NCBI RefSeq assembly: GCF_024298765.1
Contig: NZ_CP101216.1
Source: Escherichia coli
GTDB lineage: Bacteria > Pseudomonadota > Gammaproteobacteria > Enterobacterales > Enterobacteriaceae
Length of the DNA stretch: 3,375 nucleotides
Strand: one strand, 5' to 3'
Below the pieces are notes generated by a model. That model was not told where the DNA came from. It saw only the letters and a program-made list of their open reading frames with translations, and searched no databases. Below, in pieces: positions 563 to 3,375 of this stretch; position 1 is the first letter of the stretch, and each line of letters starts with the position of its first letter. A program made the position numbers and the translations under genes.

Positions 563-754
563 TCAGTTGCTTTCACCGTCATCGCCGAAGCGTGCGAGGC
601 AACTGCGGTAGAGTTCGTCGGCGTGGTCGTGAAGTGATTCGCAGATGTCTGCCTGTTCGTCCGCGTCCAGATCGTTGAGTTTTTCCAGCAGGGTTAGCGT
701 CTGGCTTCTGATAAAGCGAGCCATGTTAAGGGCTGTTTTTTCCTGTTTGGTCAT
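563..754 (-). CDS. rop: Rop/Rom, RNA I-RNA II interaction modulator (plasmid copy-number control), 63 aa
   Basis: Translation MTKQEKTALNMARFIRSQTLTLLEKLNDLDADEQADICESLHDHADELYRSCLARFGDDGESN is near-identical to ColE1/pBR322 Rop as I recall it (E to D at residue 27, last residues differ). ATG start with an AGGAG Shine-Dalgarno on the minus strand (revcomp of 763-767) about 8 nt upstream; TGA stop. Confidence 0.95.
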   Translation of the reverse strand: MTKQEKTALNMARFIRSQTLTLLEKLNDLDADEQADICESLHDHADELYRSCLARFGDDGESN

Positions 755-1141: not shown

Positions 1142-2705
1142 ATTTCATGCCAGGGGGAAAGGCGGTGGAAGTGGCCCGGTCGATTACCTGCTGGGGCGGG
1201 AGCGTAACCGCGAAGGCGCAACGGTGCTCCGGGGTAACCCGGAAGAAGTGCGGGAACTCATTGATTCCACGCCATTCTCGAAGAAATACACTTCAGGCGT
1301 TCTGTCGTTCGCGGAGAAGGAGTTACCGCCGGGTGAACGCGAAAGAGTGATGACGAGCTTTGAGCGTGTTCTTATGCCCGGTCTCGAAAAAGACCAGTAC
1401 AGCATTCTCTGGGTGGAACACCAGGATAAGGGGCGGCTCGAACTGAATTTTGTCATCCCGAACATGGAGCTACAGAGCGGTAAGCGCCTCCAGCCGTACT
1501 ACGACCGCGCGGACAGGCCGAGGATAAATGCCTGGCAGACGCTGGTTAATCATCATTACGGGCTGCGTGACCCGAACGCACCGGAGAACAGACGGACGCT
1601 TGTCACGCCAAATAATCTGCCAAAAGCGAAACAGGAGGCCGCAGAAGCGATTACACGGGGTCTTGAGGCGCTTTACCATGCCGGAGCAATAAAAACGCGT
1701 CAGGATGTCACTGGGGCGCTCACAGCGGCAGGTTTTGAGGTGGTGAGGACAACCAGAAGCAGTATCAGTATTGCCGACCCGGAGGGTGGGCGGAATCTCA
1801 GGCTAAAGGGGGCGCTGTATGAGCAATCTTTTACAAATGGGAACAGACTTCGAGAAGAAACTGAAAGAGCGAGCCGCTTCTACCGAGAACATGCTGAACA
1901 GCGAGTTCAGGAAGCTCGAAGAGTCTGTAGACAAGGCACTGAGCTTAAACAGGCAGAAAATCAGAGACGCTATCAGCGGACATACAACATCCGTGAAACA
2001 GCAACTGGATACACTGAGCGCCACCGTGAGCACGCAGTTCAGCACCACAGAGGCCGAACTGTCCCGGCAGCAGAAAAAACTGCTCTGGCAGGTGATCAAA
2101 GGGCGGATACTGTTTCCGGCGCTGACCGCGCTCAGCGTCACGGGCGGCATTTTCCTGGGGTGCTGGGGGCTGATGGAGTGGCAGGAAAGCAAGATTGCGA
2201 AAAATATCCTGACTATCAGAGAGCAGGAAAACACGCTGGCGAAACTCGAGGCAAAAACCTGGGGGGTGACGTTCGTCAATGGCGAGAACGGGAAATTTCT
2301 GGTGTTGCCGGACGGGGTGAAAGGGGAAAACACCTGGACGGTGGGCGACAAGAACGCCGTGAGGCTGGTCAGGGAGTAAACGAGTATGACGGAACTGGAA
2401 GGGCATTTGCTGAACGCCTTAGAGCATTTGCAACAGGACTATATGCGGCGGCTGAACGAGTGGGAGAGCGCCTTCGCGGAATTGCAGAAGATGCACGAGG
2501 TTACGCAACGGAACAACGCGATACTGAACGAGCGCGTCGTGATATTGAGTCAGCAGGTGCAGAGATTAGCCGGGCAAGTGGATCGCTTGAGTCGGTTATT
2601 TATCGCGAACAACAGCTAAGGGATGAACAGGAGCGTGCCCGGTACAGACATGAGGTACAGGAACGCGCGGCACGGGTTCGGAGTGGGCCATCAATGGAGA
2701 TGTGA
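1131..2705 (+). CDS. mbeA: MbeA/MobA relaxase, MOB-P5 (HEN) family, 524 aa
   Basis: N-terminus MIVKFHARGKGGGSGPVDYLLG places the catalytic Tyr at residue 19 as in ColE1 MbeA. WVEHQDKGRLELNFVIPN carries the H-E-N signature. The C-terminal half is R/E/G/A-rich low complexity, as in MbeA. I chose the 1131 ATG over the ORF-track start at 1083 because of homology and overlap coupling with the mbeC stop. Confidence 0.95.
   Translation: MIVKFHARGKGGGSGPVDYLLGRERNREGATVLRGNPEEVRELIDSTPFSKKYTSGVLSFAEKELPPGERERVMTSFERVLMPGLEKDQYSILWVEHQDKGRLELNFVIPNMELQSGKRLQPYYDRADRPRINAWQTLVNHHYGLRDPNAPENRRTLVTPNNLPKAKQEAAEAITRGLEALYHAGAIKTRQDVTGALTAAGFEVVRTTRSSISIADPEGGRNLRLKGALYEQSFTNGNRLREETERASRFYREHAEQRVQEARRVCRQGTELKQAENQRRYQRTYNIRETATGYTERHREHAVQHHRGRTVPAAEKTALAGDQRADTVSGADRAQRHGRHFPGVLGADGVAGKQDCEKYPDYQRAGKHAGETRGKNLGGDVRQWREREISGVAGRGERGKHLDGGRQERREAGQGVNEYDGTGRAFAERLRAFATGLYAAAERVGERLRGIAEDARGYATEQRDTERARRDIESAGAEISRASGSLESVIYREQQLRDEQERARYRHEVQERAARVRSGPSMEM
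1819..2379 (+). CDS. mbeB: MbeB/MobB mobilization protein, 186 aa, one predicted transmembrane segment (ILFPALTALSVTGGIFLGCWGLM)
   Basis: Lies entirely inside mbeA in the +1 frame, the hallmark ColE1 arrangement. Strong SD (AAGGGGG at 1806-1812) 6 nt before the ATG. Sequence has the MbeB-family character of a coiled N-terminal region followed by a TM helix. Confidence 0.85.
   Translation: MSNLLQMGTDFEKKLKERAASTENMLNSEFRKLEESVDKALSLNRQKIRDAISGHTTSVKQQLDTLSATVSTQFSTTEAELSRQQKKLLWQVIKGRILFPALTALSVTGGIFLGCWGLMEWQESKIAKNILTIREQENTLAKLEAKTWGVTFVNGENGKFLVLPDGVKGENTWTVGDKNAVRLVRE
2386..2619 (+). CDS. mbeD: MbeD/MobD-like protein, 77 aa, predicted coiled coil
   Basis: Same +1 frame as mbeB, starting 7 nt after the mbeB stop with an AGGGAG SD at 2370-2375; nested inside mbeA as in ColE1. 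Assignment rests on position and size; I cannot verify the sequence residue by residue from memory. Confidence 0.75.
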   Translation: MTELEGHLLNALEHLQQDYMRRLNEWESAFAELQKMHEVTQRNNAILNERVVILSQQVQRLAGQVDRLSRLFIANNS

Positions 2706-2805
2706 CCGGGGAAGTGACGAAATCTTGCCATTTTGACCAGTTCGACGGCTGGGGCGAGCGAAACAAATCGTGTGCCGTATTTGTGCATAGCTATGCAACA
2801 TCCTG

Positions 2806-2826
2806 AAAACGCATTTCACGCGTTTT
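2806..2826. terminator. Short hairpin (7-bp stem AAAACGC/GCGTTTT, 7-nt loop) about 100 nt downstream of the mbeA stop; weak candidate terminator in either direction
   Basis: Seen directly in sequence. The U-tract is mostly inside the stem, so termination efficiency is uncertain. Confidence 0.3.
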
Positions 2827-2833
2827 TGGGGAT

Positions 2834-3375
2834 TCAGCCAGGGGAAAACATGGTTTTTTTACTTTTTGAGCGTAAAGACGTGAAAAATCTCGTTATTGCA
2901 CTTGCGATCTTTCGTCGGCGGGCGTAGAACGAAAACAGCTCGCCAGGAAGGCGAGCTGTTTCGGGTTCATTGAGGTCTCTGACCTCCTCAATGTTCCTGT
3001 GGAAACTGTTGAGATCCACAACAGAAACCAGTTCATTCAGTTTGCATGAGCCTTCTGTATTCTTCAAGAATTTTTCAACAGCACAGTCTCCCAGGAACCC
3101 CGAAAAAAACCTGTTTTTGCAGATACTTGCGTATTTGCGAGAATCGTTTGCGGTTGGGGGAGCTGTGACGACGGCGACCGCACGCGTGAGAGTTCCGCTA
3201 CCGGCGCAGAGAGTTTCATCGACAGCGGACACCTGATGAGTTGCCACAAAAACCGTATGTAGCGCGGCTAGATTGGTTGAGTTAGACCTTGGCGGCAGTT
3301 CCCGGTATGTGGTGGCGTGACGGGTGAGATGGTGCGGCGAAGACGCATACGTCACGCAGGCGCGGGTTCTTCCAC
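2834..3375 (-). CDS. Hypothetical protein, 5'-truncated by the window edge (frame stays open past 3375); no recognisable domain
   Basis: A stop-free minus-strand frame of at least 180 codons, ending at a TGA (revcomp of 2834-2836) and convergent on the mob operon. Against it: no ATG anywhere in the frame (the listed start at 3353-3355 is GTG with no SD), and the strong hairpin at 2933-2961 lies inside it. Composition of the central part (KYASICKNRFFSGFLGDCAVEKFLKNTEGSCKLNELVSVVDLNSFHRNIEEVRDL) looks protein-like. Confidence 0.3.
   Translation of the reverse strand, partial: GRTRACVTYASSPHHLTRHATTYRELPPRSNSTNLAALHTVFVATHQVSAVDETLCAGSGTLTRAVAVVTAPPTANDSRKYASICKNRFFSGFLGDCAVEKFLKNTEGSCKLNELVSVVDLNSFHRNIEEVRDLNEPETARLPGELFSFYARRRKIASAITRFFTSLRSKSKKTMFSPG
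2850..2927 (+). CDS. Candidate small peptide, 25 aa (MVFLLFERKDVKNLVIALAIFRRRA), hydrophobic with a basic C-terminus; function unknown
   Basis: ATG at 2850 preceded by AGGGGA (2840-2845); TAG stop at 2925-2927, followed 5 nt later by a perfect GC-rich hairpin. No homology recognised. It overlaps the 3' end of the convergent minus-strand ORF, so at most one of the two readings is likely to be real. Confidence 0.2.
   Translation: MVFLLFERKDVKNLVIALAIFRRRA
2933..2961. terminator. Perfect 12-bp stem-loop (AAACAGCTCGCC, loop AGGAA, GGCGAGCTGTTT); candidate rho-independent, possibly bidirectional, terminator
   Basis: Seen directly in sequence. On the minus strand the stem is followed by TTTTCGTTCT; on the plus strand by TCGGGTTCATT. 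Confidence 0.45.

Follow-up and report, generated by a model that had tools for sequence, protein, structure and literature searches.

The locus considered here raises the question of what two adjacent inverted repeats do downstream of the mobilization (mob) genes of a small Escherichia coli plasmid. The stretch of 3,375 nucleotides that was analyzed, referred to as the window (RefSeq contig NZ_CP101216.1, assembly GCF_024298765.1), represents the whole of a circular plasmid of ~3.37 kb of the pSL476_3 type, so that position 3375 is followed by position 1. The repeats are located at 2933–2961 and 2968–2993. In the initial annotation they were regarded as a bidirectional terminator or insulator at the boundary of the mob module, or else as a protein-binding or recombination site. 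We propose that these repeats correspond to hairpins 1 and 2 within an antisense RNA cassette of three hairpins (2933–3024), which would control a ColE1-type, RNA-primed and protein-free replication origin. The probability of this reading is estimated at about 80%. No RNA is annotated in this region in RefSeq, and no replicon type is assigned by MOB-suite; the divergence of the origin puts it beyond the reach of those annotation and typing tools that were checked. The proposed mechanism, antisense control of an RNA-primed origin, is classical, and the lineage appears to be unrecognized.

The region in which replication starts can be delimited from the gene content. The 676 bases queried (2700–3375) occur with 100% identity in numerous Salmonella and E. 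coli records of 3.37 kb, among them the plasmid pSL476_3 of S. Heidelberg SL476, and the replicon was found in 143 of 5,426 complete E. coli genomes as well as in many Salmonella plasmids. From 2705 across the window end to 562 no conserved gene is present. Since the molecule is circular and this stretch holds no conserved gene, the replication origin must be located in it. The segment from 2780 through the window end to 319 (~915 bp) is the only DNA common to the window plasmid, the MOBQ plasmids L004, L007 and L008 and the plasmid L010 (NZ_CP132735.1); a further member of the MOBQ group, L009, was compared from a partial sequence. L010 is a circular plasmid of 1166 bp without any annotated gene, and it consists of this module and ~300 bp of unrelated sequence. 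The part from 2885 through the window end to 300 is also common to the most distant relatives, L035 (NZ_OP242246.1; 1552 bp) and L036 (2117 bp). L035 is a complete circular plasmid that likewise has no annotated gene and contains little beyond the replicon module, over which it shows 74% identity. The homology to these two plasmids begins at 2885, just upstream of the candidate −35 hexamer described below. The junctions with other backbones are thus found at ~2715, 2780 or 2885 on the left and at ~300–319 on the right. Because the module is the only common DNA, also in plasmids devoid of genes, it is regarded as the replicon, which works without a plasmid-encoded protein.

The module contains both repeats described in the initial annotation and a third hairpin, which that annotation missed and which belongs to the same cassette. 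Hairpin 1 (2933–2961) can form on both strands. Its arms, AAACAGCTCGCC at 2933–2944 and GGCGAGCTGTTT at 2950–2961, are 100% complementary over 12 nt and enclose the 5-nt loop AGGAA, which makes it the longest perfect short-loop hairpin in the window. The perfect 12-bp stem is far beyond chance, as no stem of this length was reached in 200 shuffles of the window (maximum 10). The isolated hairpin folds with −23.6 kcal/mol (z = −6.9) on the minus strand and with −23.3 kcal/mol (z = −5.7) on the plus strand. The U-rich tail that had been noted after this stem on the minus strand is real: the U tract UUUUCGUUCU runs from 2935 down to 2926, and in the relatives it is replaced by a longer run, UUUUUUCGUUCU. 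On the plus strand the hairpin is followed only by UUUCGGGUU, which is a poor tail. A stable, G+C-rich hairpin with a U run directly behind it, the feature by which an intrinsic terminator is recognized, is therefore present on the minus strand. Of the suggested bidirectional terminator, the minus-strand part is retained and the plus-strand part is not, and hairpin 1 with its U tract is most likely the intrinsic terminator of the antisense RNA and not of the mob operon. The terminator consensus scan does not list this hairpin, apparently since, as we read the scan rule, the maximal stem absorbs the first U residues.

Hairpin 2 (2968–2993, both strands) starts 6 nt past hairpin 1 and consists of the arms CATTGAGG (2968–2975) and CCTCAATG (2986–2993), which form an 8-bp stem with a 10-nt loop. 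Its coordinates hold as first described. The length alone is within chance, as a hairpin of at least 8 bp occurred somewhere in the window in 44 of 200 shuffles, but neither arm varies in any of the 19 distinct relatives, the variable positions 2977–2981 lying within the loop. The inner AGGTC/GACCT, which had been taken as part of the repeat, does not form a nested stem. It represents an alternative, bulged register that overlaps the outer stem (2973–2975) and is less stable (−4.9 to −7.4 versus −8.6 to −9.1 kcal/mol). Hairpin 3 (3006–3024, both strands) has a 6-bp stem, CTGTTG and CAACAG, around the 7-nt loop AGATCCA, and is possibly extended by pairing of 3000–3002 with 3028–3030. Its stem is retained in the relatives with wobble or C·A changes. 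In most relatives the two outer hairpins display an opposite strand asymmetry: hairpin 1 pairs throughout only in the minus-strand RNA (pair 2940/2954, U·G there and C·A on the plus strand), and hairpin 3 (pair 3010/3020) only in the plus-strand RNA. The window's own hairpins 1 and 3 are perfectly paired on both strands.

Two convergent promoter candidates flank the cassette. On the plus strand, the hexamers TTGCGA (candidate −35, 2902–2907) and TAGAAC (candidate −10, 2925–2930) are separated by 17 nt and would serve a pre-primer RNA resembling RNAII. TTGC is conserved in all relatives, and the hexamer aligns with the −35 of ColE1 RNAII, CTTGAGATC; at the −10, GTAGAACGAAAA is invariant in all 19 distinct relatives and aligns with GCGTAATC of ColE1. 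On the minus strand, TTGAAG (candidate −35, 3067–3062) and CAAACT (candidate −10, 3044–3039) also lie 17 nt apart and would serve the antisense RNA. The first of them, read on the plus strand within CTTCAAG, is invariant in all relatives and aligns with the ColE1 hexamer CTTCAAGAA; the second is conserved, with CACACT in L010. CAAACT precedes the predicted antisense start A3032 by 6 nt, and this spacing equals that of TACACT-AGAAGG-A as read in the ColE1 sequence (L003). The spacers of both candidates differ in sequence among the relatives, and that of the pre-primer promoter is fixed in length. Conserved hexamers around a spacer that varies in sequence but not in length are read as the signature of a promoter.

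The minus-strand promoter would give rise to an RNAI-like antisense RNA of ~104 nt, with predicted ends at 3032 and ~2929, which comprises a short tail, hairpin 3, hairpin 2, hairpin 1 and the U tract. All 13 variants of this predicted RNA (100–103 nt) share the same three-hairpin minimum-free-energy fold. The plus-strand promoter would yield an RNAII-like pre-primer of ~620 nt, which is predicted, from spacing only, to start near 2937, continues to 3375 and on from position 1, and ends at an A run on the plus strand (168–181). This run is kept at 11–14 nt in the relatives and is the candidate RNA-to-DNA transition, that is the origin, by analogy with GGAAAAACGCC of ColE1. The distance from the predicted start to the A run is ~620 nt, compared with ~550 nt in ColE1. 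Hairpin 1 is thus predicted to be both the 5′ hairpin of the pre-primer and the 3′ terminator hairpin of the antisense RNA. Folding of the module alignment gave 16 compensatory and 31 one-sided pair changes at −162.9 kcal/mol for the plus strand, and 21 compensatory and 12 one-sided changes at −147.5 kcal/mol for the minus strand. These figures point to a structured region, and the excess of one-sided or wobble changes together with the lower energy is only suggestive of a preference for the plus strand; the compensatory pairs are about equal on both strands and do not decide the strand of the long RNA. Downstream of the A run and inside the shared module, the segment 211–268 (considered on both strands) shows 84% identity to ColE1 1308–1364, which lies just downstream of the ColE1 origin. 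We take this segment to be a probable primosome assembly site, in line with pBR322 and ColE1. A long-range pairing is also predicted between the invariant G-rich GGTTGGGGGAG (3148–3162) and the C-rich TTCCCTCC (88–102) near the A run. It recalls ColE1, in which a G-rich/C-rich interaction stabilizes the hybrid of primer and template.

The distribution of the changes among the relatives distinguishes the stems from the loops. Loop columns of the cassette are variable in 16 of 22 cases, other columns in 15 of 94 (Fisher p = 5e-7). The loop of hairpin 1 occurs as AGGAA, ATTA, GTTA or AGAT, and that of hairpin 3 in 11 distinct sequences of 6–7 nt. When the window is compared with its close relative L004 over the ~690 bp that start at 2786 and cross the window end to 102, all 19 differences fall in 2936–3020. 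One relative, L022, is a mosaic of two cassette types, and three of the four records that contain two replicons (L037, L039 and L040) hold two different loop sets. The initial annotation had named a lack of conservation in relatives, along with transcripts that read through, as evidence against its reading; the repeats are conserved, and this objection falls away. Invariant stems with hypervariable loops would be expected of an incompatibility determinant built of interacting RNA hairpins. In ColE1, the loops of RNAI and RNAII determine which plasmids interfere with one another. This role of the loops is summarized in PMC8683028 and PMC9458437.

The likeness to ColE1 and pMB1 extends to the overall organization. 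In ColE1 as in the arrangement predicted here, the replicon is protein-free, the convergent promoters are located ~100 nt apart, the last antisense hairpin serves as terminator, the pre-primer covers ~550–620 nt up to the A run and the loops vary between plasmids. The order of the elements is collinear with that in ColE1: promoter, three hairpins, opposing promoter, ~600 nt, A run, post-origin segment, transfer-origin region and convergent rop. The predicted antisense RNA has the shape typical of RNAI: its ~100 nt form three consecutive hairpins behind a short 5′ tail, and a U tract follows the third. The loops measure 7, 10 (5 in the alternative register) and 4–5 nt, compared with 7, 5 and 4 nt in the Rfam RNAI consensus. 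A global alignment of 2896–3070 to ColE1 lines up both promoters. A covariance model, R1, was built from the 13 variants of the family, and its best match in ColE1 is L003 636–749 on the minus strand, which is covered in full length, hairpin to hairpin; the match to the RNAI locus is thus specific, though weak. Differences exist as well: primary-sequence homology is not detectable over the pre-primer, the stem of hairpin 3 is shorter (6 bp, or 9 bp if an internal loop is included), a 12-nt linker sets this hairpin apart from hairpin 2, the pre-primer is predicted to start within the 5′ arm of hairpin 1, and rop is located outside the shared module. By BLAST, homology to ColE1 was found only at 211–268 and 351–800 and none over the pre-primer. 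We read the relationship between the cassette and ColE1 RNAI as real but very distant, or at least as the sharing of the same architecture.

Several observations weigh against the assignment to a ColE1-type control system. The Rfam model of RNAI (RF00106, gathering threshold 47 bits) has no match over the whole window, and over 2800–3375 it is also absent at E values up to 10, where only chance-level matches (mir-237, Trp leader) appear; as a positive control, the model scores 73.8 bits on ColE1 itself (L003 645–749, minus strand). In this ColE1 sequence the origin was placed by eye near 1195, and rop occupies 1612–1803 on the minus strand. An nhmmer profile of the family finds no match in ColE1. 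In the global alignment of 2896–3070, the RNAI locus ranks first among 1,330 windows of ColE1 but narrowly (82–86 versus 77–79 for unrelated windows), and the R1 match to it scores no more than 14.4 bits (approximate E = 0.006), compared with 11.1 bits for the next ColE1 match. The 10-nt loop of hairpin 2 exceeds the 5–7 nt typical of ColE1. Neither promoter passes the consensus scan, and the −10 of the plus-strand promoter lacks the final T. Hairpin 3 contains a C·A mismatch as minus-strand RNA in 10 of 13 variants, and so does hairpin 1 as plus-strand RNA in most of the relatives. Covariation within the three hairpins is nearly absent: there is one compensatory pair, and 45 of 500 shuffles were as good. 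This pair, 2936/2958 of hairpin 1, changes from C-G to A-U and is broken in 2 of 13 sequences; three further pairs of hairpin 1 are altered on one side and still paired (G-U or A-U). The near absence of covariation is attributed to the shallowness of the family. Finally, the rop gene is not part of the shared module and may be a passenger of the ColE1-like mob backbone, so that its presence says little about what kind of replicon the module is.

With these points taken into account, we propose a mechanism deduced from the DNA sequence, for which transcription and its end points, the priming step at the A run and the regulation itself are predictions. The plus-strand promoter (TTGCGA, 17 nt, TAGAAC) would start the ~620-nt pre-primer near 2937, which would extend across the window end, and DNA synthesis would begin at the A run 168–181. 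The convergent minus-strand promoter (TTGAAG, 17 nt, CAAACT) would start the ~104-nt antisense RNA near 3032. This RNA would be exactly complementary to the 5′ end of the pre-primer and would stop at hairpin 1 and the U tract, while the plus-strand RNA must read through hairpin 1. Counted from the 5′ end of the antisense RNA, hairpins 1 and 2 would be its hairpins 3 and 2. Loop–loop kissing between the hairpins of both RNAs would block maturation of the primer and so set the copy number, and which plasmids are incompatible would depend on the sequences of the loops. Rop, an accessory protein that is optional among ColE1-type replicons, stabilizes kissing complexes of RNAI and RNAII. The rop gene of the window (563–754, minus strand) encodes a product with a match to the Pfam family PF01815 (E = 2.5e-37) and 97% identity to the Rop of ColE1, and this product may stabilize the complex of the two RNAs. 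Since rop is located outside the module and is absent from the MOBQ and the gene-less relatives, it is dispensable for this origin.

The possibility that the repeats form a bidirectional terminator or insulator, which closes the mob operon and shields the neighbouring region, is regarded as improbable. It would account for the strength of hairpin 1 on both strands, for its A-rich 5′ and U-rich 3′ flanks on the minus strand and for its position past mbeA. A weak alignment of the Trp-leader terminator model to the hairpin (E = 1.4) would also fit. However, mbeA ends at 2705, 228 nt upstream of the hairpin, with the conserved promoter-like element 2902–2930 in between, and the plus-strand tail is the poor UUUCGGGUU already mentioned. 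The comparison with related plasmids, which the initial annotation had recommended for locating module boundaries, places the junctions at 2715–2885 on this side and not at the hairpins; the repeats are located 50–220 bp inside the shared module, ~150 bp when 2780 is taken as its edge, and their description as a boundary or insulator is therefore abandoned. The hairpins are equally present beside a different mob system or none (L007, L010, L035), and hairpins 2 and 3 as well as the variable loops on fixed stems would be left unexplained. A hairpin with a T run at 2802–2830 is better placed to end mob transcription. This plus-strand hairpin, CCUGAAAACGC / AUUUCAC / GCGUUUUUGGG, follows mbeA and precedes the candidate pre-primer promoter; the stability of the segment's fold is not significant (z = −1.8). 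An antisense RNA of a different kind, controlling the translation of a replication or other protein, is still less probable. ColE2 RNAI and CopA of plasmid R1 resemble the predicted RNA in being short, hairpin-bearing antisense RNAs that set copy number and define incompatibility, and in ColE2-type and IncFII plasmids the translation of rep is likewise controlled by short hairpin RNAs whose loops vary. The ColE2 case is described in PMC6856555. These RNAs act on the mRNA of a plasmid Rep protein, and no rep gene is present here. A minus-strand open reading frame (ORF) of 173 aa overlaps the region, but none of the ORFs that cross the cassette or follow it is conserved among the relatives, and none has a Pfam match. 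The 1166- and 1552-bp relatives have no annotated gene, and the best ColE1 match of the R1 model is RNAI.

A function at the DNA level, as a protein-binding operator, an iteron-like origin element or a Xer/cer-like recombination site, is very unlikely. Inverted repeats are palindromic DNA, and small ColE1-type plasmids usually carry a multimer-resolution site, which was not located in the window. The central, loop-equivalent bases are nevertheless the most variable ones and the arms are fixed, whereas a recognized sequence would be conserved. One G·U wobble in hairpin 1 (minus strand, 11 of 13 variants) and one in hairpin 3 (plus strand) keep the RNA paired and break the dyad symmetry of the DNA. 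No resemblance to the XerC/XerD core consensus was seen by eye, and no direct repeats of the motif occur elsewhere in the window. Fixed stems with hypervariable loops fit RNA hairpins and not the protein-binding or recombination site considered at first. Least credible of all is that the region is a protein-coding gene. The 173-aa ORF (2834–3355, minus strand), which overlaps the hairpins, and an 88-aa ORF (2970–3236, plus strand) appear in the ORF listing, and a hypothetical protein is annotated here in a few records. Neither ORF has a Pfam match, and the frames are not conserved in the relatives compared: single-base indels among close relatives break them, and the long minus-strand ORF over the hairpins shrinks to 45 aa in L007 and L008. 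In most records the region is left unannotated by RefSeq.

Among the systems closest to the antisense RNA cassette and its protein-free origin are the Col(MG828)-type cryptic E. coli plasmids of 1.5 kb, a PlasmidFinder type to which L035 would belong. L035 has a near-identical antisense cassette, the same promoter elements, the A run and the post-origin segment. A 1552-bp plasmid was typed as Col(MG828) in PMC8000739, and a 3374-bp plasmid was left there without an incompatibility (Inc) group. Judged from size only, L035 and the window plasmid would be these two types. A published functional description of the Col(MG828)-type or of the 3374-bp replicon was not found in the literature, and nothing was found on pSL476_3 and on 1.5-kb cryptic plasmids. 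The plasmid pSL476_3 is absent from the 1,035 plasmids of the ColE1 list in PMC8683028, the largest survey of ColE1-like plasmids, in which Col(MG828) is not counted as ColE1-like. Two other candidates for the identity of the replicon were rejected. The ColpVC plasmid of S. Heidelberg is 2.2 kb in size and encodes a Rep protein, and pIGWZ12 carries a Rep_3/iteron replicon.

More tentatively, and with odds that we place somewhat below even, the module may represent a distinct, uncharacterized lineage of protein-free origins akin to Col(MG828), and its resemblance to ColE1 would stem from remote kinship or from convergence. The antisense cassette of 85 nt would then be a natural, swappable "compatibility barcode" with at least 11 loop alleles, some of them mosaic (L022), which is carried on near-identical backbones and moves between MOBP, MOBQ and gene-less plasmids. 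If this is true, several copies of essentially the same replicon could co-reside in one cell. Recognition of the cassette would allow the typing of such plasmids and would explain the coexistence of near-identical small plasmids. For vector design, the cassettes might also supply naturally occurring origins that are probably orthogonal. A parallel exists in the laboratory-evolved orthogonal ColE1 origins, for which PMC9458437 describes that changed RNAI/RNAII loops lead to compatible origins on an otherwise identical backbone; in contrast, the cassettes of the present family are natural variants of presumed compatibility.

The records containing two replicons are L037 (6548 bp), L039 (6541 bp), L040 (6055 bp) and L038 (6162 bp). 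L037 and L039, from China and Viet Nam, represent the same MOBP and MOBQ fusion with different antisense cassettes. In L040 two MOBP units with different cassettes are joined, and L038 is a partial dimer with identical cassettes. These records were taken as deposited, and both a real cointegrate and an assembly merge are possible explanations for them.

The remainder of the window is occupied by the mobilization genes. The mobC gene is located at 797–1141 and mbeA at 1131–2705, with mbeB and mbeD nested inside the latter. The relaxase ORF of mbeA is intact in the window and extends over 1083–2705 (540 aa) from a GTG start, an ATG being present at 1131. In a plasmid of identical size, RefSeq gives for mbeA only an "incomplete" pseudogene of 106 codons, and no mbeA is listed in PLSDB. 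This annotation is probably an artefact of the nested mbeB and mbeD frames. Within the ColE1-like transfer-origin region, a 24-nt block (457–480) recurs unchanged in L035 (100% identity) and with 96% identity in L036. Both plasmids are classified as mobilizable by MOB-suite though no relaxase is listed for them. A promoter-like site on the minus strand (453–426) overlaps the same block.

A perfect 14-bp palindrome, TGCATAGCTATGCA, is found at 2784–2797, where the module that L007, L008 and L010 share has its left edge; 0.01 matches would be expected by chance. It is largely conserved, with one or two changes in some relatives (L007, L008, L009), and may be bound by a protein or mark a junction or a site of recombination. 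In a scan of genome contigs for the hairpin 2 arm, the sole match was L011 (NZ_POUA01000830.1), a 519-bp contig with ~1x coverage in the assembly of the actinomycete Spongiactinospora. The contig is identical to the cassette region of the window and is almost certainly a contamination by enterobacterial plasmid DNA. The A run at 168–181 is a homopolymer of 14 A, with 11–14 A among the relatives, and this variation in length probably accounts for much of the 3370–3376 bp size spread of otherwise identical records.

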